A stretch of 64,000 nt of DNA from a bacterium (GCA_041640655.1 JBEPZV010000001.1:32001-96000); one strand, 5' to 3'; shown: positions 11,029 to 29,036, counted from the stretch's first letter. Numbers and translations: made by a program. The notes: a model not told the origin generated them from the letters alone.

Positions 11029-11044
11029 ACTCCCGCAACGGCGA

Positions 11045-11554
11045 TTACCGGGTTGCCTTTTCCACAATTTGAGCCACCATCGTGTCCATCATCTCCCCGG
11101 CCTTTTTGACTCCCTCATCACCGTAGCTGGAATAACCCGGTGAAAACTTGTAATAACTCACCACGGTCTTCCCATCCGACCGCTCCCAGACGTAAATCTT
11201 CCCTGGCATTTCGAGCCCGACCTCGGGATGCATCGGGAGTAACATCTTCCCCATGTCTGGCTTGCCGAACTCGATGGTCTTTGATCCCTTAATCCTCGCG
11301 CCTACCATGGTGAGCATGTTCTGGTGGTCAATAGTGGCGACGATCATCATCCCCCGCTCCTTGAGCGCCTTGATGAGATTGTCAACCGTCTGAGCAAAGG
11401 GATGCGCGGACACGACGTCTACTCGATTCCCCCTCTCCGTGCGCTGCGCCGGTTCGACAGGGGTCGCTCCCATCGGAGGCTTTTCCGAGGCGGCAACAAA
11501 AACCAAGCTTCCAGTGAGGACAACGAGCAACATGATGCGGTTCATGCTCTTCAT
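11045..11554 (-). CDS. DUF302 family exported protein
   Basis: Signal peptide; ATIDHQ, IEFGKP, VGLEMPGKIYVWE. Confidence 0.75.
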   Translation of the reverse strand: MKSMNRIMLLVVLTGSLVFVAASEKPPMGATPVEPAQRTERGNRVDVVSAHPFAQTVDNLIKALKERGMMIVATIDHQNMLTMVGARIKGSKTIEFGKPDMGKMLLPMHPEVGLEMPGKIYVWERSDGKTVVSYYKFSPGYSSYGDEGVKKAGEMMDTMVAQIVEKATR

Positions 11555-11660: not shown

Positions 11661-12029
11661 TTAATGGGCGCAGCAGGCGTCGTCGGTGATCGTCGCGGGT
11701 CGCCGCTGCGCCTGGCTTTCATACAGCAGCAGAGCCTTATGCACCCAGGCTTCGCCCGGGCAGCCGCCCATCGCCATCGCGACGTTCAGTATCTCGATCA
11801 TCTCTTCCCGCGTGACGCCGAGAGCGATCGCTTTCTCGACGTACATCCGCACGCACGGCTCGCACTTGATGATGGTGGAGATGGCCAGCGCCGTGAGCAC
11901 CTTCACCTTCGCGGGAAAGAGACCATCGGCATAGGCGACTTCCCGAATGCGAGCCAGGGCGTCATGAATCTCAGGACTCAACTCTGCCAAATCTACGGTG
12001 ATCATTCCCGTTCTTGTGTCTCTCGCCAT
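11661..12029 (-). CDS. Carboxymuconolactone decarboxylase/AhpD-like protein
   Basis: KVKVLTALAIS...CEPC...GVTREEMIE; C-terminal CCAH. Confidence 0.85.
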   Translation of the reverse strand: MARDTRTGMITVDLAELSPEIHDALARIREVAYADGLFPAKVKVLTALAISTIIKCEPCVRMYVEKAIALGVTREEMIEILNVAMAMGGCPGEAWVHKALLLYESQAQRRPATITDDACCAH

Positions 12030-13039: not shown

Positions 13040-13496
13040 TGAGAGAAGCCCCGAAGAAAATGCTCGATGACCGGACAGGCTTTGTTGTCGGCGATAGCCC
13101 ACTCGCAGGTGGCTTCGTATCCCGCCAACTCGCGCCTCCGTCGGGGGTGAGCGCAGCATATCGGCGGTGCCGATCCTCAAGTTCCCTCGTTCGCCACCTA
13201 TGAGAGCAGTGATCCGAGTCCGTCGGCTCGGCCCCGACCGGCGCGCCGATTTCCTCCAGCGTGAACCCGAATCTCCTGACCCGCTCGATCAAGGTGATCC
13301 GTTCGATCACGCGCGGGCACTCCACGCGATTCGGAGATCGCGTGGGGACCCCGTTCGGATCAAAGAGACGATAGCCGCTCCGGCTCCGCGCCGCTTGAGG
13401 CCACAAGCCCCGTTGCTCAGAGCAACAGAGCCCGCCCCGGCTGACGCCGCTTCGCGCCTCCACCTCGCCGATCTTGAGCCCGGCCTTGTCCGTCAT
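13040..13496 (-). pseudogene. MerR-family regulator, degenerate and frameshifted paralog of 17851-18291
   Basis: LKIGEV...RSRSGYRLFD...FGFTLEEI; HTH decayed, 14-aa insert, C-terminus lost by frameshift. Confidence 0.75.
13315..13352. repeat. Palindromic element, in-frame 42-bp insert in the merR pseudogene
   Basis: Reverse complement GGGGTCCCCACGCGATCTCCGAATCGCGTGGAGTGCCC. Confidence 0.85.
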
Positions 13497-13689: not shown

Positions 13690-13933
13690 TTCATAGCCCG
13701 GCGTAGCACGCTGGAGAGGCAATGGTTCGGTTCGATCAAGTCCCCATCGGAAACGCCATCAATCGCCTTCCCGACGGTTTTTATTTCGCCGCTTCGGGGC
13801 TCCAATGATGAACCGGTGGCTTCTTCAGCGTGGTGGGCTTGGGCTCTTGCAGGTCCCCCTTTGGGGGCCGAAGACCCCTCCACCTTCACACTCAACCCGG
13901 ACTTTCCGACCTCCTCCCGGTGAACTAACCGGG

Positions 13934-14467
13934 TTATTGGTTGGGGCGTTGTGATGTTAAGTCGAAACTCTCTACGGCCAGGACGAACACGCCGTCTTTT
14001 CGTTCGAGCAGTTTCCCCCTCAGCGTGACGTCCTGATTCTGAATTCCTTCTGTTGCCTTCAGCTTCCTGAACTGTTCGTTCTTGGCGAGTACGAACACCT
14101 CTCCAGCGTTTCGGGGTCTAATGGTCCACTCCTTCGAGGTTGAGTTGACCCGCCCAATGACCGTGATTTCGATCTCTTTGACGGGATCAAAACCCAACTC
14201 GTCCTTGAGCACCGAGAGGATTCTCCTCACCTCGAAGGGAGTTTGGGCGCTGGCCTCAAGCTCAACAACACCGGAGCGCGAATAAGTGGCCTTTTCGACG
14301 CCAGCCTGGCGCCGGAGCGCAGCCCTCATCGTCTCCGGTCAAAGGAACTTCAGGGACTTATTCGCTCCGACGTCCCCGACAACCGTGAGGCGAATCGGCG
14401 CCTCCTGTGCTCCCACTGGTAAAGAGGCACAAAACAAGAGCAGTACGATCATTGAGACCCTCGTCAT
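13934..14467 (-). CDS. Putative selenoprotein: exported HMA-like protein, U43, 177 aa
   Basis: ORFs 14339-14524 and 13934-14329 share a frame, separated by one TGA (14339-41): KFL-U-PETMRAALRRQAGVEKA; homologous to 21017-21580; hairpin CGGCGCCA-GGC-TGGCGTCG. Confidence 0.75.
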
Positions 14468-14616
14468 AATCGCCCCCTCCTCAGAAAAGAGTGGCGCAGA
14501 CTTCAGTCTGCGCGAGGTTTTCATCGTTTCTGGGCGTCCTCATGGACGCCATGGATAACTCCCCGAAACTCATAAGTCTGGAGAGAAACCCGGCAGCTCG
14601 CTTCACCCGACCGATC

Positions 14617-15015
14617 TCATCGGCCGCAGGAATTCCCCCGCCAATACTTTCCCCATACTCGTTCCGGCAAGAGAGTCAACGCGCAGCCGCCCAGGATCAC
14701 GGCCAGGCCGATCCCCATCCACCCCGTGGCCGAGAGCGACACCAGCCCCACACCGTGAGCCAAAGAGACGCCCGCCCCGATCAAAAACAACGGCCCCGTG
14801 AAATAACAATGCACTCGCCCACAGCGAGCGGCATTCACAAGGCATCCCGCTCCGGCTACACCAAGCGAAACCGACCAGAGCACCGCCCGAAGGCTCGGGC
14901 TTGTGAAAAAGCCAACGGCGAAGACCGCGAGCGGCAGTTTCCATACAATCAGCGAAACCCACTTGCTCGCGACGAGATCTTTCGGCTCAGCGCCACCACA
15001 ACAGTCTGCACTCAT
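14617..15015 (-). CDS. Small Cys-rich membrane protein (mer-operon type)
   Basis: N-terminal CC, CLVNAARCGRVHCYFTGP, about 4 TM. Confidence 0.7.
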   Translation of the reverse strand: MSADCCGGAEPKDLVASKWVSLIVWKLPLAVFAVGFFTSPSLRAVLWSVSLGVAGAGCLVNAARCGRVHCYFTGPLFLIGAGVSLAHGVGLVSLSATGWMGIGLAVILGGCALTLLPERVWGKYWRGNSCGR

Positions 15016-15024
15016 GGCTTCACC

Positions 15025-15552
15025 TCACGTCTCCGTCACGGCGTAGCCATCGGGCATCGGGGCCGCGACAGCTTCCTCCCGCCTTCTTGTCGAATCCGAT
15101 CGCTTCAGCGCTCTGAGCACAACCCCGGTCACCACGCCGAGGCAACACCGGCCCGACGGATTCATGATCTCACAGGCGCATCGGCCGGCCTTGACCTGCG
15201 CCTTGATGTAATCGGGAATCGTCGTTCGTCCCGTCGCCGCGATCTCATCGCGCACCATCTTCTCCGTGACGCCGAAGCAATAGCAGATCGGCACCGGGTC
15301 TTCGGTCTCCTTCACCCCCACCCGCACGCGCACGTCACTTTTGTAGAAGTACGCGTCGGCCTCGTTGGAGAAGTACACGACCGGACACGTGGGCGTCGCG
15401 CAGAAGAAGTGGGGATGATCGGTCAGACGCGCTACCGCCGACTCCACAAGCAGATGCTCCATCGTCCGCCGCGTGACGGGCTTCCCCTTCCGCCCACACA
15501 AGCGGCAGTGGGCGGAATGGACCACGATCGGCACCTGGCAACATTCGGACAT
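15025..15552 (-). CDS. CopZ Zn-binding / BFD-like [2Fe-2S] metallochaperone
   Basis: CRLCG, FFCATPTCPVVYF, PICYCFG, CACEIMNPSGRCCLG. Confidence 0.85.
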   Translation of the reverse strand: MSECCQVPIVVHSAHCRLCGRKGKPVTRRTMEHLLVESAVARLTDHPHFFCATPTCPVVYFSNEADAYFYKSDVRVRVGVKETEDPVPICYCFGVTEKMVRDEIAATGRTTIPDYIKAQVKAGRCACEIMNPSGRCCLGVVTGVVLRALKRSDSTRRREEAVAAPMPDGYAVTET

Positions 15553-15588
15553 GCGTCTTTCACCTCCTTGAGCGACCGGGCTCGTCTG

Positions 15589-16941
15589 TCAGACCATGTA
15601 GCTCACGTCTGAGCAACTGCTCGGATAGGCATAAGGCATCCGCTTCAGATCAGCCGCGCGAAGCCCCAATCTAATGGCCAGGCCAAACAGATTGATGACC
15701 TCCTCGGCATGAGGCCCCAGCAAATGCGCGCCGAGAATCCGATCGCTCCCCTCCTCGACGAGCACCTTGAATCCTGAATGCGTCATTCCCACTCGGCGCG
15801 ACGAATACCAGCCGGATGTATCCTCGCGCTTGACCCTGAACGTCAACCCCTCCGCGCGAGCCTTCTCTTCGTGCAACCCCACCGATGCCAGAGGCGGGAT
15901 CGTGAAGACGACCGTGGGCACCCCCGTGTAATCCGGGCGGCGGTGATTCCCTTCGAGGAGATTACTGGCCACGACCTGCCCTTCGATGGCGGCCACAGGC
16001 GTCAGCGGCGGGCCGCCGCTCGCCGCCACATCGCCGGCCGCGTAGACCGCCGGATTCGAGATGCTCTGGAGATATTCGTTGACGAGGACGCCTCGCCGAT
16101 CGCTCGCCACGCCCGCCACGTCCAGGTTGAGATCCTCGATGTCCGGCGCGCGCCCCGCACCGTGCACCACGAGATCGGCTTCAAACGTGTGCTCCACGCC
16201 TCCAGCGCGAGCCTTCACGATCAGGCCGCCCGATCGCCGCTCGATGGCCTCAACCGAGGTGTCGAGTCGAACGTCTATGCCGATGTCTCGCGTCGCCTGC
16301 ACGAGTCTCTCCACCAGATCCGGATCGAACCCTTTCAGCGGGCGCGACCCGCGATGGAGGATCCGAGCGTGAGCGCCCGCCCGCGCCGCCACATGCGCGA
16401 ACTCGAAGGAGATGTATCCTCCGCCGACGAAGACGATGCGCTCCGGGAGCCGGTCCAACTCCAGGAAGTCATCGCTCGTCGTCAGGAACTCTTCACCCGG
16501 AATCCCGAGCCGGGCCGGGCGCGCGCCCGTCGCGATGACAACATGCCGGGCCACCAACTCTTCATCCCCCACGGCCACAGCCGTCGGAGCCACGAAGCGG
16601 GCTCGACCGTGCACGGTCACGATCCCGGCTTGAGCGAATCGCTTCTCTCGGTTTTCCGGAATCGGATCGGTAAACGTGCGCTTGAAGCGCATCAAGTCCG
16701 ACCACTCGATCCGACACCCATCCGAGGCGATCCCTTTGCCCGTCATTCTGCGCGCCCAGTCCACGACTTCGGCGGCTCCCACGAGAACTTTCTTCGGATC
16801 GCAACCGCGCAAGGCACACGTCCCGCCAAACGGCCTCGAATCAATGACGGCGACGCTCCATCCGGCTGCCCGACACCGATAGGCCACCGTCGCAGCCGCC
16901 GTTCCCGTCCCGATGACGATGAGATCGAATTGTCGCCCCAT
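15589..16941 (-). CDS. Pyridine nucleotide-disulfide oxidoreductase (glutathione reductase/MerA class, no C-terminal CC)
   Basis: IVIGTGTAA, GGTCALRGCDPKK, VGGGYISFE, YAAGD, AYPS. Confidence 0.9.
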   Translation of the reverse strand: MGRQFDLIVIGTGTAAATVAYRCRAAGWSVAVIDSRPFGGTCALRGCDPKKVLVGAAEVVDWARRMTGKGIASDGCRIEWSDLMRFKRTFTDPIPENREKRFAQAGIVTVHGRARFVAPTAVAVGDEELVARHVVIATGARPARLGIPGEEFLTTSDDFLELDRLPERIVFVGGGYISFEFAHVAARAGAHARILHRGSRPLKGFDPDLVERLVQATRDIGIDVRLDTSVEAIERRSGGLIVKARAGGVEHTFEADLVVHGAGRAPDIEDLNLDVAGVASDRRGVLVNEYLQSISNPAVYAAGDVAASGGPPLTPVAAIEGQVVASNLLEGNHRRPDYTGVPTVVFTIPPLASVGLHEEKARAEGLTFRVKREDTSGWYSSRRVGMTHSGFKVLVEEGSDRILGAHLLGPHAEEVINLFGLAIRLGLRAADLKRMPYAYPSSCSDVSYMV

Positions 16942-16952
16942 GATCGCCTCCC

Positions 16953-17801
16953 TCACAGGACGGCCTTGAAGCCGGTCCTGTTGATCGCGTCGGCCACCTG
17001 CTCGAGCGTGACGCGTGCCGGATCGAACGTCACGACGGCGTGCTTCTTCTCGACACTGACCTCTACAGCCTTCACCCCATCGCGCCGCATGAGCGCCTGC
17101 CGGACCGACGCCGCACACCCGGCACAGGTCATCCCTTCGACGGGAATGGTCGCCGTCACGGCCTCGATCGTGAAGCCGGCTTCCTTGACCGCCTCCACAA
17201 GCTTTTCTAACCGGATCCGCTCGGGATCGTACTCGACCAGGGCTTCGCCCTTTTCGTAGCTGGCCGTCGCCGAGCGCACTCCGGGAAGAGCTCCAAGCGC
17301 CGACTCCAGAGCGGCCGCGCACCCGCCGCAGGTCATGCCGCCGACTTCCAGCCGCACGGGGTCCCCACGCGATCCGGAGATCGCGTGGGGTGCCCGCACG
17401 CTTATCGGCCGCTCGACCGCAGCCGATGCGACCGATCCCCCTTGCTCCTTCGACGGACCGTTCAACGCCGCCCAGAATCGCCCGGAATAATAGGGAAACG
17501 CGGCAAAGAGCACGATCACGACCGTAGCGATCCACAGGATCGTCTTCTGCCATCGCGAGGCCTTCCTGGTCGCGCATGCCCCATCGGCGCACGCCGCCTC
17601 TTTCCGGCGATAGGTGAGATAAAACGCCGCCGCCAGCAGCGCGAACGTCACGACGAGCAAATAGGGTCGCCACGCCTCGAAGGCGGCCGCCGCGCCGAAA
17701 CTCCCCAACCCCACGACCGCAGCTACAATCGGCCCCAAGCAACAGAGCGAAGCCGTGATCGCCCCAATGAGCGAAGCTCCAAGTGCGATCTTCTCCCTCA
17801 T
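16953..17801 (-). CDS. MerT-like transporter fused to two HMA domains
   Basis: TASLCCLGP, CADGAC; GMTCGGC and GMTCAGC. Confidence 0.9.
   Translation of the reverse strand: MREKIALGASLIGAITASLCCLGPIVAAVVGLGSFGAAAAFEAWRPYLLVVTFALLAAAFYLTYRRKEAACADGACATRKASRWQKTILWIATVVIVLFAAFPYYSGRFWAALNGPSKEQGGSVASAAVERPISVRAPHAISGSRGDPVRLEVGGMTCGGCAAALESALGALPGVRSATASYEKGEALVEYDPERIRLEKLVEAVKEAGFTIEAVTATIPVEGMTCAGCAASVRQALMRRDGVKAVEVSVEKKHAVVTFDPARVTLEQVADAINRTGFKAVL
17358..17395. repeat. Palindromic element in-frame in HMA strand 1, flanked by CCGCACG direct repeats 42 bp apart
   Basis: GGGGTCCCCACGCGATCCGGAGATCGCGTGGGGTGCCC; CCGCACG at 17352 and 17394. Confidence 0.9.
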
Positions 17802-17819
17802 CGTCCCTCCTTTCACACG

Positions 17820-17839
17820 GGGGTCCCCATGGGGCGCCC
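17820..17839. repeat. Short form of the palindromic element, intergenic
   Basis: GGGGTCCCCATGGGGCGCCC. Confidence 0.6.
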
Positions 17840-17850
17840 CCGACATCCCT

Positions 17851-18291
17851 TCACTCCCGTTTCCGCCCCCGCCGGGGCTTTGACGCGCGAGAGGAAGGGT
17901 GAAGAAAATCCTCGATGACCGGACAGCTCTTCCGCCCGGCGACGGCGCGCTCGCACTCGGCCTTATAGGCCGAGAGCTCGCGACGCAATCGTTTGATCTC
18001 CTCGTACCGCCGATCGAGATCCTCGAGCTTGCGCGCGATCACCTGCAGAACCTCCGCGCACGTCCGCGGTTCGGCCGTCGGTAATTGGAGCAATTGTTTG
18101 ATCTCCTCGAGCGTGAAGCCGAAGCTCTGCGCCCGCTTGATGAAGCGCAGGCGCTCGATCACGCGCGGATCGTACAGCCGATACCCGCTCTGCGTCCGAG
18201 CAGCTCTCGGCAAAAGCCCCAACCGTTCGTAGTAGCGGAGCGTATCCACGCTCACGCCACATTCGGTGGCCACCTGGCCGATCTTCAACAC
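17851..18291 (-). CDS. Heavy-metal-responsive MerR-family regulator
   Basis: LKIGQVA...TLRYYERLGLL...GYRLY...GFTLEEIK; Cys in TCAEV, AECE, SCPVI; GTG start after GGAGG. Confidence 0.92.
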   Translation of the reverse strand: MLKIGQVATECGVSVDTLRYYERLGLLPRAARTQSGYRLYDPRVIERLRFIKRAQSFGFTLEEIKQLLQLPTAEPRTCAEVLQVIARKLEDLDRRYEEIKRLRRELSAYKAECERAVAGRKSCPVIEDFLHPSSRASKPRRGRKRE

Positions 18292-18325
18292 CGCCGCTTC
18301 CCCTCCGCTCGTTTTCACAACCGCC

Positions 18326-18357
18326 AGTATAAACCCTGGACCTATCTCCAGAGTCAA
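18326..18357 (-). promoter_or_regulatory. ZntR-type MerR promoter/operator
   Basis: TTGACT-ctggagataggtccagggtt-TATACT; dyad ACTCTGGA/TCCAGGGT. Confidence 0.85.
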
Positions 18358-18536
18358 GCGAAAGCTTCAGGTGTGCCACCCCAAGCCAGGCACGAGCGGT
18401 TCCCTGGCGGCCATCGCATCTACAGCGATGACGTGCCGATTGCGTATCACCGAATATGTCGAGCGGGGTCTCGCCGGCGCGTGAGTTCGAGCTCCATCGT
18501 TTCACCCGAACATGGGTGACTTGTTGAGTCGCCCCT

Positions 18537-20720
18537 TCAATTGGGTCGGCGCGCGCGTTCGATCGCCTCCAGCGCTGCTGCCAACCACTTCTCGCCCTGG
18601 CCGCCGAAGCCCACCTGCTCCAGGACCACGGTGCCTTCTTGACCGATCAGCCAGCTGCGCGGGATGCTCACAAGCGGCAAGACGCTCTCCACATACGAAG
18701 AGGCCGGGATGACCGGGAAACTGAAGCCGTGCTTGTTGACGTAAGGCTCCACCAATCCGAGATCCGCATCCACGTTGAACGTCAGCACGAGCACATCCGG
18801 GTGATCTTTCAGGCGTTCATAGAGCTTCTGCACGTAGGGCAGTTCCTCGCGGCAGGGGCCGCACCACGTCGCCCAGATATTGATGAACGTGATCTTGCCT
18901 CGGAGATCGGCCAGCCGCCAGGTTCGTCCTCGAAGGTCTTGAAGCTCGAAATCGGGAAGGGGCATCTGGCGCTCCTCCCATGCGCCGGGAGAGGCTTCCC
19001 CAATCGGGGCCGTTGCCCGCGCCAACCACGCATGCCATCCCTCAGTCGTTCCCCCAAGCTCTCTCCACAAGCGCTCGACTCGCTTCGTCAGGTCTTCTCT
19101 CGATGCGCCTCTCTCATCCGGCTCGGGCCCCTCCAGCAGCGCCTTTTGATAAAAGGCGAGGGCATCGAGCTTTCGGTTTTCGGCCTCGGCCAGCCGCGCC
19201 ATCCACTCCCAGTAGATCGCCTGACGTCGAGCGTGGAGGCGCTTTTCTTCGCTCGGAGCCGACTCTTGCGGTCTTCGCCGGACCAGAAAGTCTTCCATCT
19301 GAATGAGCACTTCGCGCGCCTTCTCCCGCCGGTTCATCTTCAGGTAGGCGTCGAGCAAGATCGGCCATCCGCGCCAGTAGCTGTAGTCCACGTTGCCTTG
19401 AAGGGCTTTTTTCGCCTCGGCCGAAAGGTCGTCGCGTCGGACGTCCCGCTCCGTTCTCCGTTCGATCTCGCGGAAGCCGCGCTCAATCAGTTCCGGGATG
19501 CGTTCGAGTCGAACGCCGCGCTTGAGATAGAGCTGAGCGACCTGAAGGGCCGGGGGCGGCAGGGCATAAAAGAGGTCGGACTGTTTTTCCGAAGCGCTCA
19601 GCAGGCGCTCGCCGATCGTCTCGATCTCGACAGAAGGGAGATCGTCCAGCTCGCTCGCGGCCTCAAGTCGTCTCAGCCATGGAGCGGGATGATCGGGCCA
19701 GCGCTGAATCCATTCCTCGGTTGCGCGGAAGAGGGCGCGATAGTACGCTCGACGCTTCTCCGGAGGGTCGGTCTCGCCGGGGCGAGGGTGAGCCGCGTTC
19801 CATCGGTCGTAGACGATGAGGGACATCACGCCGCTGGAGTGAGGGAATCGGCGCAGCATCTCCTCTTCCACCCAGCGAAGGCCCTGGGCGTCGCCGGTCA
19901 TCTCGTAGCCCGTGCGAAGCGTCAAAAGCCCGCGCAAGGTGTTGCCCAGCCCCAGATCGCGCAATCGCGTGAGGTCTTCTGCGATCTGTTTTCGGAGCCG
20001 CGGATGTTCCGTCACGGGCTTCGCCTGGAACTCCAGTCGCCACAGGGTTTGGTAATAGGAGAGGTCTTCGGGATCGGTCCGGCTCCGAAGCCGTACGCGC
20101 AGCTTTTGGGCGGCCTCGGCGAGGAACTCCCGATCGTCCATCCGGCCGGCAAGCTCATACGCCTCCACGCTCGAGGGGCAGAGCCTCATGAACGTCTCCA
20201 GATGGGCGCGCGCTTTCTGCAGATCTTTCCAGGGGCCCTGCAGATGGATTCGGGCCAGCGCCAGGTGAGCCAGCGGGAAGTCGGGCGCTCGCTCGATGGC
20301 CTTTTCGAGAAGCGCGATCGCCAGGTCGGTCTGTCGGCCGATGAGGCTGTTGCCGTACAGGTACAAAGCGAGAGGATCATGGGGCTGTCGTTCGAGTCGT
20401 GCCTTGTACTCGGCGATCAGCGAATCCAGCTCATCGTCCATGACCTGCTCGATGAAGCCCAGGTAGCGACGGTGGACGAAGGGATCGTCGGGAAATTGTC
20501 TCAACAGGGGGCGCAGGATGGCCAATCCTCGCTCTCGGCGTTGCTCTCGTCCCGTGCGCGCGTCATCATCGAAGGACAATTTCCGGAGGGCCAGTTTTAC
20601 TTCGGGAGATGGCTCACAAGGAGAGTTCACCGCTTGTGGCCACACAGAGGCTTTAAGCGTCACGGCGAGGACGCCGCTTAAAACGACCTGTCGCCACGTG
20701 ATCTTCTTGTTGGCCTTCAT
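18537..20720 (-). CDS. Exported TPR/helical-repeat protein with C-terminal TlpA thioredoxin domain
   Basis: Signal peptide, TPR-like repeats, NIWATWCGPCREE. Confidence 0.85.
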   Translation of the reverse strand: MKANKKITWRQVVLSGVLAVTLKASVWPQAVNSPCEPSPEVKLALRKLSFDDDARTGREQRRERGLAILRPLLRQFPDDPFVHRRYLGFIEQVMDDELDSLIAEYKARLERQPHDPLALYLYGNSLIGRQTDLAIALLEKAIERAPDFPLAHLALARIHLQGPWKDLQKARAHLETFMRLCPSSVEAYELAGRMDDREFLAEAAQKLRVRLRSRTDPEDLSYYQTLWRLEFQAKPVTEHPRLRKQIAEDLTRLRDLGLGNTLRGLLTLRTGYEMTGDAQGLRWVEEEMLRRFPHSSGVMSLIVYDRWNAAHPRPGETDPPEKRRAYYRALFRATEEWIQRWPDHPAPWLRRLEAASELDDLPSVEIETIGERLLSASEKQSDLFYALPPPALQVAQLYLKRGVRLERIPELIERGFREIERRTERDVRRDDLSAEAKKALQGNVDYSYWRGWPILLDAYLKMNRREKAREVLIQMEDFLVRRRPQESAPSEEKRLHARRQAIYWEWMARLAEAENRKLDALAFYQKALLEGPEPDERGASREDLTKRVERLWRELGGTTEGWHAWLARATAPIGEASPGAWEERQMPLPDFELQDLRGRTWRLADLRGKITFINIWATWCGPCREELPYVQKLYERLKDHPDVLVLTFNVDADLGLVEPYVNKHGFSFPVIPASSYVESVLPLVSIPRSWLIGQEGTVVLEQVGFGGQGEKWLAAALEAIERARRPN

Positions 20721-21016
20721 CGTGCCCTCCCGATCGGAAGGAACTCTGCCAGAAGATAATGCCACATTCAAGCGCGGCGAGGCTATGTACGTCACCGGCT
20801 CGACAAGGGCTGCCGCCATGGCACGTGAGGCATCGAACCAGGGCGTTCCGTCGTGCGGCGGCACTCGGGCCTGTCTGCCGACAGGCGGATGACCGTGATG
20901 GCCGCCGTGCTCTCGCATCCTGGGTCAAGGGAGAACCCTTGCTCTTCGCCTTTTCGAGCGCGTTATTGAGAGGGTTACTTTTTGCGCCGCGGCTCTAGAG
21001 CTCGCTCGGACTCAGA

Positions 21017-21580
21017 TCAGATTCCCCGCCGCAACAGGCGCAACACCACTTTCCCGCCAAGTCCAAGACCATCCTCGCCCAATGGCTCAAAGTTCTCAAC
21101 GGTGAGACCGGGCGGACGATCTGCATGGCTGGGATGAAGCTTCCCAGTCACGCGGATTTTCTTCCCCACGAGGTCAGTCCGTTTGCTGAGTGCGGCTGCC
21201 TCTGCTCCACCGGCCAACACAAACGGATGGTCCAACCCGGGAACATCGAGCGTCGGGAATTCTCCCTGCGCAATCAATGTCCCATCAACCACCACCACAA
21301 TAGCGGCTGGGGTGAAGCCCGCATCCCGGAGCGCCTGGGGGATCCGAACGGGATCGAAGGATTTTCCGGGCCGGGGAAACACCTCCACTTCTCCTCTCGC
21401 CAGGTTCACGTCGGCACGATCAACGCCTTCCAGGCGCTGGAGGGCTTTCTGTGCCCCTCGCGCTCAAAGGGGACAGAAGAGGCCGTCAATTTTAACCGTC
21501 GCCCTCACCACCTGAGCCGATACCGGCGCGGCGGAAAAAAAGCCAAGCAGAAGCAAAAGCCATAGGCTTGGTCTGTTCAT
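21017..21580 (-). CDS. Putative selenoprotein: exported HMA-domain protein with CxxU (C36-P-L-U39), 187 aa
   Basis: MNRPSLWLLLLLGFFSAAPVSA-QVVRATVKIDGLFCPL-TGA(21464-66)-ARGAQKALQRLEGVDRADVNL, in frame with ORF 21017-21409; hairpin CAGCGCCT-GGA-AGGCGTTG. Confidence 0.88.
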
Positions 21581-21635
21581 CAGCTTTCTCATGTTCAAAC
21601 CCTCCGAAGAAATCGGGTCGCGTCATCCGGAGCTC

Positions 21636-22649
21636 CTAGAACAAAAATCGGAATCCGAGAAGAAAGGTCGAACCAGGCTCCGGTTGCCTCCCGTTGAGGG
21701 CCCGGACGACCGGAATCGGAGCCGAGAATTCGACCAAAAATCGGTCGCTGAGGAAGTACTGGATTCCCGGTGAGACCGAAAGCGTCGTCCCGCCGGTGTC
21801 AGGCACTTCCTTGCCCTGGCGGCGGGCGCGAGCTTGCCAGGTGCCGTTCATTTCCACGACGAGATACGCCCCATGGCGGAACAACCGATCAAGGGCCCTG
21901 CGCGGCCACCCGGCCCGAGCGCCTGCCGCCACGTTGTTCGATGAGATGACAAAGCGCGACAGCGCGGCGTCAAACCGGAGCCGGTCGCCCACGGACAGAC
22001 CCCCGCGGTTCTTGGTCGCATGAGTGTACTCGAAATCGCCACTGAAGACGTACTTCAACCTCACCGCCTTCTGGAAGATCATCCCGCCGGTGTACTCGAC
22101 CGCCCCCGTCGAGAACCGGTCAGCGCCCGTCGGCACCTGCAATCCAAAAACTCCCGACAGCCGCGTCATCCCACCGGGGGCGTTGCGACTGTAGAGCCCA
22201 TCGTACTGAACGAACACTCGCGCGTCGGCCAACCCACTCACGCGCTCTCGCTCTGCTTCACCTCCCATCCGATGGGTCACATCTACGATCGCGTAAGGCT
22301 GAGCCAGGATGACCATCCAGCCCGGAGAAAATCCGTAGACAACGGTCACCGCCGGAACATACTGAGTGACGCCGACCGATCCTTCCTCCATTCGAAGAGA
22401 AGAATGCCGAATTTCAACGGATGAGCGGATGAGCGTCGCCCGATTGAAGAGCGTCCGGGCGCTCGGCGCCACGATGGTCTGCGCGCGCCCGTCGGCCGAT
22501 GAAAGCCCCATGCCGCCGATGAGCACGAGCGCGATGCTCCAGGACGCCGGTCTCCGAAATCGCGCAGGCTTCCCGGCCGGCTTTCCCCAAGGCCCAGCCG
22601 TCGAGGCGAAGGCCGCTACAAATTCCGACGTTTCCGACCGACGCGGCAT
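21636..22649 (-). CDS. Putative outer-membrane beta-barrel protein (start uncertain)
   Basis: Amphipathic strands (SGLADARVFVQY, GLQVPTG, LSVSPGIQY), C-terminal Phe. Confidence 0.65.
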   Translation of the reverse strand: MPRRSETSEFVAAFASTAGPWGKPAGKPARFRRPASWSIALVLIGGMGLSSADGRAQTIVAPSARTLFNRATLIRSSVEIRHSSLRMEEGSVGVTQYVPAVTVVYGFSPGWMVILAQPYAIVDVTHRMGGEAERERVSGLADARVFVQYDGLYSRNAPGGMTRLSGVFGLQVPTGADRFSTGAVEYTGGMIFQKAVRLKYVFSGDFEYTHATKNRGGLSVGDRLRFDAALSRFVISSNNVAAGARAGWPRRALDRLFRHGAYLVVEMNGTWQARARRQGKEVPDTGGTTLSVSPGIQYFLSDRFLVEFSAPIPVVRALNGRQPEPGSTFLLGFRFLF

Positions 22650-22663
22650 GTGACGACCCGTTG

Positions 22664-22963
22664 TCAAAAGAGGCGGAGGCTCCAAAGTAAGGCCGAGACG
22701 CCCGTCCCCGCCCACACCGTGAAGCGAGCCGTTCGCCCTCCCTGCCCCTTCACGTTCACCAGATAATGCGCGCGCAGCAGAGCGTACACGGTGAGGGCCC
22801 CGAAGATCGCCTTCCCGCGGGCGAAGATCACGTGCGCGGCGACGGCCCCTGCTGTCCCGAGCAGGGCGAACACCGTTGGCGCCAGTCAGCACCAGGGGAG
22901 CGACGCCAGTACCGCCACCCCACTGCAGATCGGCCCCCACCGCCAAGCGCGCCGCTTCTCCAT
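22664..22963 (-). CDS. Putative selenoprotein: small MerT/MerF-like membrane protein with a CU pair (C25-U26), 99 aa
   Basis: AAGGAGG RBS, ATG 22963: ...AVLASLPWC-TGA(22886-88)-LAPTVFALLG..., in frame with ORF 22664-22873; hairpin CCCTGCT-CGGGAC-AGCAGGG. Confidence 0.8.
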
Positions 22964-23053
22964 CTCGGCCTCCTTTGATCCACCGGGGAGTGCCCGCGCA
23001 GACGCTCCCCGGGGCACCCACTGCGATCTATACTCGAGTAGTGACTGACGCCG

Positions 23054-23227
23054 TCACTTCTTCAGCGGACAGGCATCGCGGCAGATGATCTTGCCCGTGA
23101 GCGGGCAGACGATCCGACCCGGGCAGCTCGATGGGCTCTCGGACGATGCCTTGAACCCATAGAGCGCTCCCGATCCGATCGCTCCGCTCAACACGAGCAG
23201 CAACACGATCCGGCGCATTCGTCGCAT
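23054..23227 (-). CDS. 57-aa exported/anchored four-Cys peptide (below ORF-track cutoff)
   Basis: MRRMRRIVLLLVLSGAIGSGALYGFKASSESPSSCPGRIVCPLTGKIICRDACPLKK; GGAGG RBS at the end of merR. Confidence 0.75.
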   Translation of the reverse strand: MRRMRRIVLLLVLSGAIGSGALYGFKASSESPSSCPGRIVCPLTGKIICRDACPLKK

Positions 23228-23230
23228 CGG

Positions 23231-23680
23231 TCATCCCTCCTTTCCGTGATCTGGGCGGTGATGCCCGGCCAGCGTCATGATGAGCGAGCAGACGTAGGGC
23301 GAGGAGTCTGCTTGATCGGGCATCGCGTCCAGTTGGGCGAGCAGAGCGGATAGCTCCCGGCGAAAGGCTCGCAGTTCGGCGATCTTTCGATCCAGCGCCC
23401 GAAGCTTTTCCCGAAGCAAGGCTCGGACTCGCGCACATGGCGATCGCCCCTCGCGGCTGAGCATGACAAGCTCTCGAATCTCCGCCAGCGACAGCCCCAG
23501 CGCCTGCGCCGCTCGAATGAAGCGCAGCCGCATGAGCGCCGCCTCATCGTAGAGGCGATAGCCCGAACGCGTCCGCGCCGCCCGCCCCAACAATCCCTCC
23601 CGCTCGTAATAGCGAACCGTCTGAGGCTTCACCCCCACGGCCCGCGCCAGCTCGCCGATGTAAAACGTCCGACCCGACAT
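23231..23680 (-). CDS. Heavy-metal-responsive MerR-family regulator
   Basis: YIGELARAVGV...TVRYYEREGLL...SPCARV...YVCSLI. Confidence 0.92.
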   Translation of the reverse strand: MSGRTFYIGELARAVGVKPQTVRYYEREGLLGRAARTRSGYRLYDEAALMRLRFIRAAQALGLSLAEIRELVMLSREGRSPCARVRALLREKLRALDRKIAELRAFRRELSALLAQLDAMPDQADSSPYVCSLIMTLAGHHRPDHGKEG

Positions 23681-23704
23681 CTCACGCCTCCTTTCACACT
23701 CGCT

Positions 23705-23736
23705 ATTCTAAACCTTGCAGCCAACTGCAAGGTCAA
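23705..23736 (-). promoter_or_regulatory. MerR-type promoter with perfect 9-4-9 operator
   Basis: TTGACC-ttgcagttggctgcaaggtt-TAGAAT; ACCTTGCAG-TTGG-CTGCAAGGT. Confidence 0.85.
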
Positions 23737-23786
23737 GCCCCATTTTTCAGCGCGGGCAGAGGGAGCGCCCCTGGAGAGCTTCGGTG

Positions 23787-23830
23787 TGTAATCTCGATTA
23801 CTGAACGGCTCGGTCGGATGGCGTTAAGCT
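23787..23830 (+). promoter_or_regulatory. Crp-type site and -10 upstream of the TlpA/DUF3179/OsmC operon
   Basis: TGTAA-TCTCGA-TTACT; TAAGCT at 23825. Confidence 0.5.
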
Positions 23831-24594
23831 GGTGGCTCGATGCGAATTTCCGATCTCTGCGAATTTCCAATCTGCCGGAGACGATCATGACCGATCGAAG
23901 AATACCGGACGGCATTGTCCGAGGCCGGAACGCGAGGCCCTCCATCCGGCCGCGCCTACGGCCGACTATTTCGGCCCACACGATACTCTCGACAGCCGCG
24001 CTGAGATGCTCAGGAGCACGAGGGACCGTCCGCCTCTCGCATGCACGCGTTGTTGTGATCGCTGTCTCCCTGGTTGCCGGAATATCGTTCACTGCCGGCA
24101 GCAGGGGCGCATGGTCACGCGTCTCGGCTCATGATTCGACTCTCGCCGTTGCCGCCGACAAGGATGCTGATGAGAGGGGTCGGCCCGCGCCGGAGCTCGA
24201 GCTTGTGGATGTTCGCGGTCGCCCGGTGCGTTTGGCCGCCCTCCGGGGTAAAGTCGTGATCGTGAATTTGTGGGCGACCTGGTGCCCTCCCTGCGTGATG
24301 GAAGTCCCGACCTTCAAGAAGCTCCACGCGACGTATCGAGATCGGGGGCTGGAGATCATCGCCATCTCTCTAGACGAGGACGAACGAGAGGTCAAAACGT
24401 TCATCCGGGAACACGCCCTCCCCTACACCGTCATCCTCGGCGATGAACAGATCGCGGAGAAGTTCGGCGCGTTGACGGGACTCCCCATGACGTTTTTCAT
24501 TGATCGGAAAGGGCGCATCCGTGCCGAGCACGCCGGTTTCATGGACGAGGAAGATTTCGTCCGCGAGGTCGAACGATTGCTGTCGGAGCCGTGA
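23818..24594 (+). CDS. TlpA-family thiol:disulfide oxidoreductase (true start probably further downstream)
   Basis: NLWATWCPPCVME, GLPMTFFID. Confidence 0.85.
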   Translation: MALSWWLDANFRSLRISNLPETIMTDRRIPDGIVRGRNARPSIRPRLRPTISAHTILSTAALRCSGARGTVRLSHARVVVIAVSLVAGISFTAGSRGAWSRVSAHDSTLAVAADKDADERGRPAPELELVDVRGRPVRLAALRGKVVIVNLWATWCPPCVMEVPTFKKLHATYRDRGLEIIAISLDEDEREVKTFIREHALPYTVILGDEQIAEKFGALTGLPMTFFIDRKGRIRAEHAGFMDEEDFVREVERLLSEP

Positions 24595-24715
24595 TTCATC
24601 CCGGCTCCGCTTCTCCTCTCGATGATGCGAATGTGGTAGACTCATGTTCCGTGACTCGCCGAAAACGGCCGACACGGGGTACAGATCGCAAGGGATGCCC
24701 TGAAGGAGGTGAGGA

Positions 24716-25828
24716 ATGATCGTGACGCTTCGACGATTCGGCCGGCTGACCGCGCCGCTTGTCGCTCTGTTGACGATGGGACTTATGAGCGCTGCTTCTC
24801 AGTTCCAGAAAGACAAACTCTTTGTCGTCACCCAATTTCCCCCGGAGTTGAACGATCCGGAGTTCATCCCCGCCACCCATCCCGACGGTGGCTACCTGGA
24901 TGACACCGAGACGGTGATGGGCATTGCGCTCGAGGGAGAGAGCCGGGCCTATCCGCTCCGGATCATGGCCTATCATCATGTGGTCAATGACGTCGTCAGG
25001 GGCCGCCCCATCGTCCTGGCCTACTGACCGGTCTGCGGGACGGGAGTCGGGTTCGACTCCGTGACACAGCAGGGGAGGCGGCTCATGTTTAAGCCGCACG
25101 GATTGTACAACGCCGAACTCGTGTTCGCCGACACCGAGACGGGAAGCGTCTGGTCGCTGACGAGCGGCGAGGCGATGGAGGGTCCGCTCGCAGGCCAAAG
25201 ACTCAACAAACTCGCGGTCGTGCAGACAACCTGGGCGAAGTGGAAACAGCTCCATCCCGACACGCTGATCGTTTCCAACCGGACGCCCCATCAAGCCCAC
25301 TACAAGCCGTTTCGCTGGCAGCCGCGCCAGCTCAGCTCCGTTTTCGAGCGCACGCTCACGCATCGAGATGAGCGACTGGGAAGAATGGAGCTGGTCCTGG
25401 CGGTGGCCCTGGGCGATGAACGCAAAGCCTATCCCTTATCCACGCTCAAGCAAGCGGGCGGCGTGGTGAACGATGTCGTCGGCGGCGTGCCGATCGTCGT
25501 CTTCTACGATCCACAGACGAACACCGCCGCCGCTTACGAGCGCAAGCTGGGCAAACGGGTGCTCCGCTTCGAGAACGCAGATCGGCAGGGCGAACGGGCA
25601 CCCCACGCGACCTCCAGTTCGCGTGGGGACCCCATACGGCTCGAGGCGGTGGATACGGCGACGCGTTCCCGGTGGAACCTGGCCGGTCGCGCCGAGTCGG
25701 GCCGACTGCGCGGCGAGCAACTTGCAGCCGTGCCGGCTCACACGGGAGCCTGGTACGCCTGGGCCGCCTACTTCCCGGATACGAAGATTTACACCTCGGC
25801 CGCTCGTCAAAGGGAGCGCCAGAAGTAG
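24716..25828 (+). CDS. Putative selenoprotein: DUF3179-like exported protein, U104xxC, 370 aa
   Basis: RAYPLRIMAYHHVVND...PIVLAY-TGA(25025-27)-PVCGTGVGFD, in frame with ORF 25061-25828; hairpin GGAGTCG-GGTT-CGACTCC. Confidence 0.88.
25596..25633. repeat. Palindromic element in-frame in the DUF3179 gene
   Basis: GGGCACCCCACGCGACCTCCAGTTCGCGTGGGGACCCC. Confidence 0.85.
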
Positions 25829-25844
25829 AGGCATATGACTGCGC

Positions 25845-25882
25845 GGGGTCCCCATGCGATCTATAGATCGCATGGGGTGCCC
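25845..25882. repeat. Palindromic element, intergenic
   Basis: Identical to 5861-5898. Confidence 0.9.
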
Positions 25883-25990
25883 GAGCGCCCATGTCACGTC
25901 TTTCGCGATCGCCGCCATCGGGTGTTCAAGCGGAGGTTCACGGAAAGGGACTCCGCATTCGGCCAAAATAGATTATGTGGAGGTCAACCG

Positions 25991-26488
25991 ATGAACAGCG
26001 CTGTGGTTTATCGTTCGCGGGTACGGATTGAGCGCGTCGCGGGTCCGCTCCGGCGGGCTTATCTTCCGGCGGAAGCGCTGCCCGTTCTCTTCGGCGTCCA
26101 TTCCGAAGTCGCCGCGCACTACGGCGTTGATCCGCGTGTCCATGAACCGCACGCCACGACGCTCGATTATCTGGTGGCGGCGGCGGCGGGCTGACTCACC
26201 GGCACCTTCGGTGGCGCGCTGGAAGCGCGCGGGATCCCCGCCGGAGAAGGACGGCTCACCTCGGAGGCCACGGGCGAAGTGGAAGCCGACGGGCGCGTGC
26301 TCATCGTGCGGCGCATTCACGTGACGTATCACCTGCGCCTGAGACCGGACAAGCGCGAGGCCGCCATCCGGGCTCACGAAAAGCACGCCGAATACTGCCC
26401 CGTCGCTCGAACCATCGGCGGCTGCGTGACCATCACGACTTCGCTCGAGATGGAGGACCTCGCTGAGGATGCTGCCGATACCGGTTGA
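25991..26488 (+). CDS. Putative selenoprotein: OsmC/Ohr-like protein, U68, 165 aa
   Basis: TTLDYLVAAAAG-TGA(26192-94)-LTGTFGGALEARGI...HAEYCPVARTI; hairpin GCGCGCT-GGA-AGCGCGC. Confidence 0.88.
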
Positions 26489-26520
26489 GCCGACACCGGG
26501 GAGAAGTTCATTCGGCAGAG

Positions 26521-26559
26521 GAGTGCCCCATGCGATCTCCGAATCGCATGAGGATCCCC
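26521..26559. repeat. Palindromic element variant, intergenic
   Basis: GAGTGCCCCATGCGATCTCCGAATCGCATGAGGATCCCC. Confidence 0.75.
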
Positions 26560-26637
26560 GTGCGGTTTCTCCGCCGAAAGCCGGGGCGTGAGTCCTTTCG
26601 ACAGCATTTTCAGCAACCCCATGGTGGGAGGTCAACG

Positions 26638-27642
26638 ATGAAGACATCGGTTCTGATTGCCGCTCTCTGTTTCATGATGGGTCCGGGCGGGCTCATCGCG
26701 TTCGTTCAAGAGAAACAATACCTCGATGCGGGTCCGGGCCAGCGCCCGTTCGACGTCACCAAGCGCTCGGTTCCGCTCGAAGACATTCAAGGCGGCGGAC
26801 CGCCTAAAGACGGCATCCCGGCTCTCGACTCGCCCACATTCGTCTCGGCTCGCGAGGCCGAAAAATTCCTGCGTCCTTGGGATCGCGTCTTAGGCGTTTC
26901 GCTCGCCGGCGCGGCCAAAGCCTACCCGATCAAGATTCTCAACTGGCACGAGATCGTCAACGATCAGGTTGGGGATCGGCCCATTCTCGTCACCTGGTGA
27001 CCGCTCTGCAGTTCGGGCGTCGTGTACGACCCGATCATTGACGGCAAGCGATTCACCTTCGGCGTGTCGGGCAAGCTCTACAAGGCGGCTCTGGTCATGT
27101 ACGACCGCCAGACCGAGAGCCTCTGGTCGCAGCTCATGCAAGAAGCCATCGCCGGCCCGATGACAGGAGCGAAGCTCGCCATCCTGCCGAGCCTCCACAC
27201 GACGTGGGAGCACTGGCGGGCGCAACATCCTCAGACGCTCGTCCTCTCGCCCGAGACGGGATTCCGCCGCGATTACGGCTTGAATCCCTATCAAGAATAC
27301 TGGGAGATGGGCCAGCCGCCCCGTTTCCGGCGCCCGCCCAAAGAGAAGAAGTCGGATGTCAAACTCAGGCCCATGGAGCGCGTGCTCGGCCTCTCAGTGG
27401 ACGGCGTGAAGAAGGCCTATCCCTTCTCCGTGTTGAAGAAGAAGCCCGAGCGATTTGAGGATCATGTCAGCGGGAAGAAGGTCATCATCCACTTCGACAA
27501 AAAATCGGAGACCGGATACGTCACCGATGAGCGTGGGATTCTCATCCCTTCGATCGCGCTCTTCTGGTTCGCGTGGAGCGATTTTTATCCCGATACGGAG
27601 GTCTACGGCGAGGAGCCGTCACAGCAACAGCCGGTCCGCTGA
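26638..27642 (+). CDS. Putative selenoprotein: DUF3179-like exported protein, U121xxC, 334 aa
   Basis: GGPPKDGIPALD...KAYPIKILNWHEIVND...PILVTW-TGA(26998-27000)-PLCSSGVVYD...FGVSGKLY; hairpin TCGGG(C)GTCG-TGTA-CGACCCGA. Confidence 0.9.
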
Positions 27643-27699
27643 CATCCGGTAGGCCGCCCTGAAGAGGGCCTCCGGCTCACAGGGACGCGGGCGCAGCCG

Positions 27700-28230
27700 C
27701 CGCGCCTTCATCGAGCTGTCATCTTTGCGTGCAGGCATCATATCCCTTGGGAGGATCTCGCACGAATCAACGACGCCCTGCCCTCGAATCTGCCCACGCC
27801 GTTGGCGCGATGACCGTCACGGCCAAATCGCTCGGCGCAGGCATCCCGCTGCGCGGATCAATGATGTGAGCGATGCGCCGACCGGCCACTCGCGTCGCGT
27901 TCTCACATACGAATCGGAAGAGCCAATGGCCATATCGCTCAGCGCGAGCGTCAAGGCCATGCGCTCGGGCCGGGCCGGATCCCTCACGGAGACGCGCCAA
28001 GGACGATCATCCGGCCCCTTCCCCAGAGCGTAGATCGAGCTTTCGCCGAAGTTGATGAAGGCTCGCGCATGCCCCCGGGCGCGCGCGGCGCTACAGCCCC
28101 CGACGGAACATCGTCTCTCGCGACCGGCGCGATCTCAGGCGCTTGGCGTCGCCGACGCTTCACCGCGCCCCCAGCGATCTCCACGAGGCCGGCGATTTCT
28201 TCGTCTCCACCTCCGCTCACCTCCTCGGAA
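27700..28230 (-). pseudogene. ApbE (FAD:protein FMN transferase) remnant
   Basis: Fragments AFINFGESSIYALG and HIIDPRSGMP...VTVIAPTA in broken frames. Confidence 0.55.
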
Positions 28231-28306: not shown

Positions 28307-28649
28307 TTTTCATCGTGTGTGGCGTGCATTCGCACATGAGCGATTCCTGAGGGAGAAATAGCGCGACACCCGGGCGACAAGCAGCGGATGATTTGCTCCC
28401 GATGGGCCGATCCATGAGAGACGCCCTCGGCCGCGTCACCTCTCGACCCGCTCGACCTCCGCCTCCTCACCCGGCTGTCCCCTGCGCTGTCGGCGGTGAG
28501 ATCCCCTGCGCACCAATACTGCACCCACGACGAGCCGATGGAGCCAGGCACTCACGGTCACCCCGCTCTCGCCCGCCGTGGGGTCACCGGACGAGGGTTG
28601 ATCAGGACTCACACGGTCAAAAGCCGGAGGCGACGACGGTCATGCCGTC

Positions 28650-29036
28650 TCACTTGAGATCCGACTCGACGCGCAATCCATCGAGAAACTTGTTGATCCC
28701 CATGAAGAGATCCACGACGGCGAGGGCCTCCAGCAATTCTTCAGTGGAAACACCCATTCGTCGCAATCCCGCCGTATGAGCGTTGATACAGTATTCGCAG
28801 TTATTGACGGTGGAGACGGCCAGGGCCAGAAACTCTTTCGTCTTCGGGTCCAGCTTGCCCGGCCCCATGATCACTTTGAAACGATTCCAGCTCGCTTCGA
28901 GATAGGCTGGATGATTCGCCATCGCTCTGAAGAGATTCGGGACAAAAGGCAAATTAAAGGTGCGCTTGATGTCATCAAAAATGTCTTTCACCTTCCCTGT
29001 TGCTTGCTGTTCAGAAGTCAAAGGTACTGTTGCCAT
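28650..29036 (-). CDS. AhpD/CMD-family peroxidase-related protein
   Basis: VPNLFRAMA, TKEFLALAVSTVNNCEYCINAH. Confidence 0.9.
   Translation of the reverse strand: MATVPLTSEQQATGKVKDIFDDIKRTFNLPFVPNLFRAMANHPAYLEASWNRFKVIMGPGKLDPKTKEFLALAVSTVNNCEYCINAHTAGLRRMGVSTEELLEALAVVDLFMGINKFLDGLRVESDLK

Follow-up and report, generated by a model that had tools for sequence, protein, structure and literature searches.

In this study we analysed a bacterial DNA stretch of 64,000 nucleotides (nt) (GCA_041640655.1, JBEPZV010000001.1:32001-96000; hereafter the window, with positions counted from its first letter), in which six genes lying within 13.7 kb, from 13934 to 27642, are each interrupted by one in-frame TGA. 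We consider it highly probable that all six are real selenoprotein genes, in which UGA and a downstream hairpin are read by SelA, SelB, SelD and tRNA-Sec, and that their cluster is devoted to thiophilic metals and envelope redox chemistry. They encode two HMA-type proteins (HMA1 and HMA2), a MerT-like membrane protein, two DUF3179 proteins (DUF3179a and DUF3179b) and an OsmC-like protein; U denotes selenocysteine (Sec) throughout. The cluster is best understood as a set of metal and redox modules that have come together in this genus; that it works as one machine is not proven.

Each of the six frames contains exactly one internal TGA, at the coordinates given in Table 1, just as an earlier note on this DNA, made from the sequence alone, had claimed. 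The starts assumed in that note are equally plausible, as all six frames open with ATG and a GGAGG-like Shine-Dalgarno motif lies 5-9 nt upstream of each. Hydrophobic N-termini are visible by inspection in HMA1, HMA2, DUF3179a and DUF3179b, and in a Pfam scan of the read-through proteins the domains extend across the TGA. A second TGA serves as terminator in four of the six Sec genes, and 10 of the 11 listed non-Sec open reading frames of the cluster also stop at TGA, which is therefore the usual stop codon here. The prediction that annotation would split these genes was borne out by the databases, where the 13 homologues of HMA1 start after the TGA and both entries for the MerT-like protein are pieces of 69 amino acids (aa).

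The residues at the TGA columns were compared by matching the read-through proteins against 150 other genomes of the phylum and aligning six-frame translations of the matching loci; the counts include rows from two unpublished genomes (L019 for DUF3179b, L070 and L073 for HMA2), and the picture is unchanged without them. Apart from two DUF3179 rows (S and G) and two frameshifted OsmC-like rows, the other genomes hold Cys or TGA at these columns, thus the placement of the TGAs is not due to chance. DUF3179b, with matches in 58 of 151 genomes, shows 21 C, 8 U, 1 S and 1 G in 31 rows from other genomes, and HMA2 (43 of 151) shows 24 C and 7 U in the same number of rows. All seven Sec homologues of HMA2 carry UxxU, and its own CxxU was not met elsewhere in the sample. 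The OsmC-like protein is matched in 26 of 151 genomes, with TGA in 28 of the 30 matches outside its own genome; among 31 rows from other genomes its column has U in 28, C in one and R in two, and both R rows are another reading frame of a single frameshifted copy that entered the set two times. For the MerT-like protein (4 of 151 genomes) the three outside rows give 2 U and 1 C, and the residue pairs met are UU, CU and CC. HMA1 has no match in the 150 phylum genomes at E ≤ 1e-4; it was found in four of 60 closer relatives, all with TGA at the column. Identity of 36-61% is carried through the TGA in many genomes. All six TGAs very likely encode Sec at the Cys positions of their families, with slightly less certainty for HMA1 and the MerT-like protein.

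The machinery for reading such codons is present in the genome (128 contigs, 3.13 Mb, 89.8% complete), as selA (483 bits), the SelB wing domain (70 bits), tRNA-Sec (75 bits against a gathering score of 47) and selD (365 bits) were all found with scores over curated cut-offs. The selD gene has one in-frame TGA of its own and, together with genes for a DsbA-like protein, a peroxiredoxin and an AhpD-like protein, in which a Pfam domain spans the TGA, makes up the further Sec genes confirmed outside the cluster. The genome total is at least ten, and only a lower bound because a genome-wide scan for Cys paralogues returned 195 candidates, mostly shadow-frame noise or gene junctions, of which only three were kept after inspection and Pfam search. 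Codon-usage scoring, tried for all Sec genes, was rejected owing to wide overlap of the scores (median 25-codon score 3.8 in frame versus -5.9 out of frame), and one further candidate, C-x-C-x-C-T-U-C-H at window position 39446, appears non-coding.

A stem-loop follows each of the six TGAs, starting 15-28 nt downstream, as a candidate selenocysteine insertion sequence (SECIS). Compensatory changes occur in two of five pairs of the OsmC-like hairpin (28 sequences; for example GC in 16 and AU in 8), in three of five pairs of the DUF3179 hairpin (10 sequences) and in three of eight pairs of the hairpin shared by HMA1 and HMA2 (11 sequences). In the HMA2 family the region after the codon has a mean minimum free energy of -22.6 in Sec forms (n = 7) versus -15.8 in Cys forms (n = 24) at equal G+C content. 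The support for these candidate elements comes from their conservation, not from the stability of single sequences.

The six genes occupy 0.44% of the 3.13-Mb genome, and by our own arithmetic a random spread of 30 Sec genes would place only 0.13 in 13.7 kb, so the clustering is real. It is conserved within the genus: in the congener G152 all six genes are syntenic with their TGAs kept, and in G155, where the TGAs are likewise retained, five are neighbours and a distance of 6.5 kb separates HMA1 from them. The cluster comprises at least three transcription units on both strands, two of them read from MerR-type promoters, and Pfam and NCBIfam scans agree with the earlier description of the setting as a MerR-rich metal and redox cluster. 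No sign of foreign DNA was seen in its G+C content.

The earlier note had gone further and seen in the six genes a single dedicated selenol-based system. Of this proposal the clustering, the Sec reading and the MerR setting stand, while its unity is only partly supported, given the three or more units and the lack of co-location in the 150 other genomes of the phylum. A single periplasmic selenol relay made up of all six selenoproteins would fit six Sec genes in 13.7 kb with only four others confirmed elsewhere in the genome, an arrangement kept in G152 and mostly in G155, and the position of merR_c between two divergent units, which together account for five of the six genes. We nevertheless regard it as rather unlikely, since no MerR operator was seen at the plus-strand unit, HMA1 is detached in G155, and of the six genes the 40 kb examined of G156 yielded just DUF3179b and HMA1. 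In other genomes of the phylum the genes of the DUF3179, OsmC, HMA and MerT-like families are widely separated or on separate contigs, and the sole recurring arrangement is the pair of an outer-membrane barrel and a UxxU HMA gene, met at 6 of 13 loci and at 4 of 5 wider loci. A MerR gene was within 1.5 kb at 5 of the 13 loci. The MerT-like gene and the mini-peptide gene were undetected beside barrel/HMA pairs in five genomes at E ≤ 0.01, which for such short and divergent sequences does not amount to absence. Several gathered modules thus remain the better description.

Some results weigh against the selenoprotein reading and its metal and redox setting. Taken singly, the six hairpins are no stabler than shuffled sequence (z from -2.1 to +0.3); over the 54 nt past the codon DUF3179 Sec forms fold no better than Cys forms (-17.4 versus -16.1), and the MerT-like hairpin is based on 3 sequences only. 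In the closest relative, G152, and in L112 ('Bacterium HR10') a 1-nt deletion lies 25 nt upstream of the HMA1 TGA, and HMA1 is there either a frameshifted pseudogene or an assembly slip. No metal-specific NCBIfam model scored over its cut-off, so that no particular metal is indicated and this is not a canonical mer operon: for merR_b the MerR score was 121 against 150.85, the MerA score of the neighbouring disulfide reductase was 304 against 454, and for merR_c likewise no metal-specific model scored over its cut-off. Finally, every functional step we propose is drawn from family membership and gene order.

Of these points, the frameshifted HMA1 orthologue in G152 would also suit the view that the TGAs are true stops and the genes split or pseudogenes, which is how public gene calls treat them; this is very improbable in the face of the identity maintained across the TGAs, the Cys or TGA at the homologous columns, the Pfam domains spanning them and the Sec machinery. 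Least probable of all is that the TGAs are sequencing or assembly errors or reflect a genome-wide reassignment (codes 4 or 25), for although the assembly is in 128 contigs, 89.8% complete, and the homologue P0005 has W at the two Cys positions of CxxC, none of the TGAs differs in the contigs of four public runs, each from a different study (X1-X4; any one of them may have supplied the assembly), which over 13900-27700 depart from the window only at 17712, 17713 and 17724, the congeners G152 and G155 retain the TGAs, most genes here stop at TGA, and translating TGA as sense throughout merges adjacent genes into frames that contain 6-26 odd codons.

Table 1. Positions of the six Sec genes, their candidate hairpins, neighbouring features of the window, and Sec genes elsewhere in the genome (given as genome, contig and position).
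Feature	Position	Strand	Remarks
HMA1	13934-14467	-	TGA 14339-14341 = U43 of 177 aa; KFL-U-PET (U-P-E-T)
HMA1 hairpin (candidate SECIS)	14296-14314	-	27-45 nt past TGA; 8-pair stem common to HMA2 family
HMA2	21017-21592	-	TGA 21464-21466 = U43 of 191 aa; FCPL-U; stop TGA 21017-21019
HMA2 hairpin (candidate SECIS)	21421-21439	-	8-pair stem as in HMA1 and UxxU relatives
MerT-like membrane selenoprotein	22664-22963	-	TGA 22886-22888 = U26 of 99 aa; PWC-U, C25-U26 pair
MerT-like hairpin	22847-22866	-	7 pairs, 22-41 nt past TGA
DUF3179a	24716-25828	+	TGA 25025-25027 = U104 of 370 aa; Y-U-PVC
DUF3179a hairpin	25040-25062	+	
OsmC-like	25991-26488	+	TGA 26192-26194 = U68 of 165 aa; AAG-U-L; CPV at C135
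OsmC-like hairpin	26214-26230	+	
DUF3179b	26638-27642	+	TGA 26998-27000 = U121 of 334 aa; W-U-PLC
DUF3179b hairpin	27015-27031	+	
Terminator-like hairpin	14494-14513		between merR_b unit and HMA1
merR_b unit	14617-18357	-	MerR-type promoter, then five genes; HMA1 downstream
MerR-type promoter of merR_b	18326-18357	-	TTGACT, 20 nt, TATACT
TPR and TlpA/ResA-like thioredoxin-fold protein	18537-20918	-	WCGPC; start codon uncertain
Outer-membrane beta-barrel, MetA-pathway/phenol-degradation type	21636-22562	-	Pfam PF13557, E 1.2e-8
Cys-rich secreted mini-protein (putative), 57 aa	23054-23227	-	conserved in G152 and G155
merR_c	23231-23680	-	Pfam MerR, MerR_1, MerR-DNA-bind; first gene of its unit
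MerR-type promoter of merR_c	23705-23736	-	TTGACC, 20-nt spacer, TAGAAT; then AGGAGG, merR_c ATG
TlpA/ResA-like thiol-disulfide oxidoreductase	23818-24594	+	WCPPC; first gene before DUF3179a, OsmC-like, DUF3179b
Palindromic repeat copies in window	5867, 13321, 13581, 17364, 25602, 25851, 29554		~26-nt cores of ~42-nt unit
DsbA-like selenoprotein	G000:C45:8709-9509	+	Y-Q-U-P-F-C; Pfam domain over TGA
Peroxiredoxin selenoprotein	G000:C15:44424-45002	-	T-G-G-U-T; Pfam domain over TGA
AhpD-like selenoprotein	G000:C1:217820-218401	-	C-F-Y-U; Pfam domain over TGA

Four of the five families found here are already catalogued as selenoproteins. The statement in the earlier note that Sec forms of OsmC-like, DUF3179 and mercuric-transport proteins were known is confirmed by tables in two reviews, PMC9312934 and PMC13188914, which list DUF3179 (UxxC/T), OsmC-like, 'putative mercuric transport protein' and UxxU metal-binding protein as selenoprotein families and credit the DUF3179 family to Zhang and Gladyshev (2007). 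A full-text literature search for DUF3179 with selenoprotein gave nothing beyond these two papers, and a search for a selenoprotein with MerT and MerR gave no related paper.

Both DUF3179 proteins are clear members of their family, scoring 240 bits (DUF3179a) and 300 bits (DUF3179b) against a Pfam cut-off of 27 (PF11376), with U-P-x-C at the conserved Cys column and the conserved hairpin after the TGA. What sets them apart is that two paralogues, 32% identical, share a unit with TlpA and the OsmC-like gene, and that DUF3179a has a 14-aa in-frame insert. This insert, at about 25590-25631, derives from a palindromic repeat, and the G155 orthologue is without it. In an AlphaFold2 model of DUF3179b (predicted local distance difference test score, pLDDT, 89.3) residues 89-195 (window 26900-27180) resemble Rieske ferredoxins with Z 6.5, which is below the caution line of 8, and a root-mean-square deviation (rmsd) of 2.7-3.1 over 91-95 residues. 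H104 and U/C121 are nearly invariant in this region, and in their spacing H104 and U121-x-x-C124 are reminiscent of the pair of ligand boxes in Rieske proteins. The core is without the Rieske cluster ligand set CxH...CxxH, and neither this model nor that of HMA1 had a Foldseek match in the PDB at E ≤ 0.001. The model thus offers a Rieske-like core for DUF3179 as a lead only; no mention of such a fold was found in the excerpts of PMC9312934 and PMC13188914.

In the OsmC-like protein the OsmC domain (PF02566; 52.1 bits versus 27.5) spans the TGA and Sec is accompanied by a downstream C-P-V, as in known selenoproteins of this type. The spacing of U68 and C135 fits what we take to be the peroxidatic and resolving Cys of OsmC/Ohr. 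It differs from OsmC_like_Se (NF041052) in its motif, G-U-L-T-G-T with no strict UxxT, and belongs to a different subfamily because it reaches only 18.8 bits against the cut-off of 95 in that model.

HMA2 matches the Pfam HMA domain (PF00403; 37.1 bits versus 24.8) with the metal-loop C-P-L-U and is putatively secreted, with a C-terminal extension. Like its nearest relatives, the UxxU binders (NF041115), and like MerP and CopZ, it combines an HMA domain with a residue, here Sec, at the CxxC metal-ligand position, and its hairpin is that of the UxxU relatives. It reaches 36 bits against the cut-off of 95 for NF041115, which HMA1 does not match at all. Both proteins have a single Sec each (CxxU in HMA2, U-P-x-T in HMA1) and, unlike UxxU binders, MerP and CopZ, show a putative signal peptide as well as an additional domain at the C-terminus, which in HMA1 is an OB fold. 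The MerT-like protein is small and three-helical, as MerT selenoproteins and the MerT-CopZ fusion (NF045683) are, and its C-U pair falls on the CC pair of the first helix, as seen in the alignment to the first transmembrane segment of the neighbouring Cys-type MerT-HMA fusion (E 0.002). There is no match to Pfam MerT (PF02411), and the NCBIfam model merT_RC607 (NF033560) gives 22.4 bits against a cut-off of 130. In contrast to the known forms it has no fused HMA domain and no Cys after residue 26, so the second cytoplasmic Cys pair of MerT is absent. The motif given for the mercuric transport selenoprotein in PMC13188914 is C/SxxU, versus CU here.

HMA1 is, on its predicted structure, a new narrow subfamily in which a putative signal peptide is followed by an HMA fold with U-P-x-T and then an OB fold. 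In the AlphaFold2 model (pLDDT 85.9) residues 23-100 match HMA chaperones with Z 9.2-8.0 and rmsd 2.0-2.6 over 66-71 residues, best of all CsoZ (Z 9.2, rmsd 2.0, 67 residues), then ATP7B, Ccc2a, CopA, ZntA and NmerA. For residues 98-175 the matches are OB folds, YgiW and the C-terminal domain of NlpE among them. U43 is placed between a short helix and helix 1. Which of the two Cys of CxxC it corresponds to is ambiguous, though the first is suggested by the conserved U-P-x-T. HMA1 has no match to Pfam HMA (PF00403) and a single ligand U with no second thiol. Two orthologues from the same genus, 52-53% identical, keep the putative signal peptide, the frame and the TGA, with U-P-S-T. A search of 5.8 billion database proteins gave 13 homologues, each 109-131 aa long and starting right after the TGA, and five of seven representatives in a library of 1.84 billion proteins likewise begin there, as is typical when a gene call has been cut short. 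For the distant group of HMA1 a metagenome scan returned no match; the sole match of a second scan was a contig with 100% identity, which does not count as independent. At the frameshifted orthologue loci (L112:3070-3140 and G152:C7) the putative signal peptide and the remainder stand in different frames. The HMA-OB homologue P0005 (167 aa) reads M-E-W-H-L-W where relatives show CxxC or UxxU, and is probably an UxxU gene called with TGA as Trp.

As to the neighbourhood, the minus-strand gene run from 23680 to 18537 comprises the merR_c unit, in the order merR_c, mini-protein, MerT-like gene, barrel and HMA2, followed by the TPR-TlpA gene, and the plus-strand unit diverges from it. The spacer of the merR_c promoter contains a perfect dyad, ACCTTGCAG-N4-CTGCAAGGT, at 23712-23733; a consensus promoter scan missed this promoter because it takes only spacers of 16-18 nt. 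The mini-protein had no family match in Pfam and NCBIfam scans. The merR_b unit runs merR_b, MerT-HMA-HMA fusion, pyridine-nucleotide disulfide reductase, zf-CopZ/BFD protein and Cys-rich membrane protein. Its reductase scores equally as glutathione reductase and as MerA and has one Cys at the C-terminus, without the pair of the canonical mer operon, from which the unit also differs by MerR and MerA scores below the cut-offs. Several Cys-form neighbours belong to families with Sec forms elsewhere: CopZ_Nterm_CU, MerT_CopZ_Se, WAxxUGC and AhpD-related proteins.

Outside these units, a third MerR gene, merR_a (about 13100-13496, minus strand), looks degenerate: it gives a partial MerR-DNA-bind match below the cut-off, its C-terminal part runs on in another frame, and it contains a copy of the palindromic repeat. 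Cys-form AhpD/CMD genes lie on both sides of the cluster (11664-12029 and 28647-29036, both on the minus strand), and DUF302 and DUF6789 genes at 10210-11554. The repeat, CCCACGCGA-N6-12-TCGCGTGGG, occurs as 22 strict copies across the genome, and the window contains 7 of these. Two copies stand in frame as 14-aa inserts, one in DUF3179a and the other in the MerT-HMA-HMA fusion, where it is missing from the L112 orthologue, and public contigs end at copies of the repeat. It recalls the in-frame palindromic elements of Rickettsia.

Taking gene order and family membership together, the merR_c operon provides, under its MerR-type promoter, a regulator, a Cys-rich mini-protein, a MerT-like protein with Cys-Sec in its first helix, a barrel and a putatively secreted C-x-x-U HMA protein. 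The plus-strand unit supplies a TlpA-like reductase, the U-x-x-C proteins DUF3179a and DUF3179b, and an OsmC-like protein with Sec at what is presumably the peroxidatic position, and the merR_b operon contributes a MerT-HMA fusion, a disulfide reductase and a CopZ-like protein in Cys forms, with HMA1 at its end. We propose that the barrel, the secreted Sec-HMA protein and the C-U membrane protein may relay a soft metal ion inward in the manner of MerP and MerT, and the TlpA, DUF3179 and OsmC proteins may keep envelope thiols and selenols reduced and clear peroxides. A bolder version, which we put forward tentatively and hold to be improbable as a whole, is that the merR_c divergon is an uncharacterised selenium-dependent envelope system, in which barrel, Sec-HMA and C-U proteins would import or sequester soft metal, the DUF3179 proteins would be His/Sec(/Cys) enzymes derived from a Rieske fold and serviced by TlpA and an OsmC-type selenoperoxidase, and HMA1 would found a family of single-Sec (UxxT) HMA-OB periplasmic metal binders.

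Among multi-selenoprotein operons, section 9 of PMC13188914 gives SAO, with six Sec genes, as the largest and Tso with three. The present cluster resembles them in having several metal-linked Sec genes of differing families side by side, equal in number to SAO, and differs, as far as that section describes them, in its families (no MerB-like lyase, no ABC transporter), MerR-type regulators, envelope location and host, which is a thermophilic hot-spring lineage, probably of the Acidobacteriota. New elements here are one subfamily, HMA1, two motif variants, CxxU and CU, and the clustering of six Sec genes under MerR-type control.

With families that are mostly known, the gain is in context and detail, not in principle. 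Six Sec genes in 13.7 kb match the largest selenoprotein operon, SAO, cited in the relevant section of the 2026 review (PMC13188914), and the cluster is a clear example of selenoproteins halved by public gene calls. It ties the use of selenium to MerR-controlled metal handling in a thermophilic lineage, and provides leads on two families of unknown function, DUF3179 with its possible Rieske-like core and the HMA-OB proteins.

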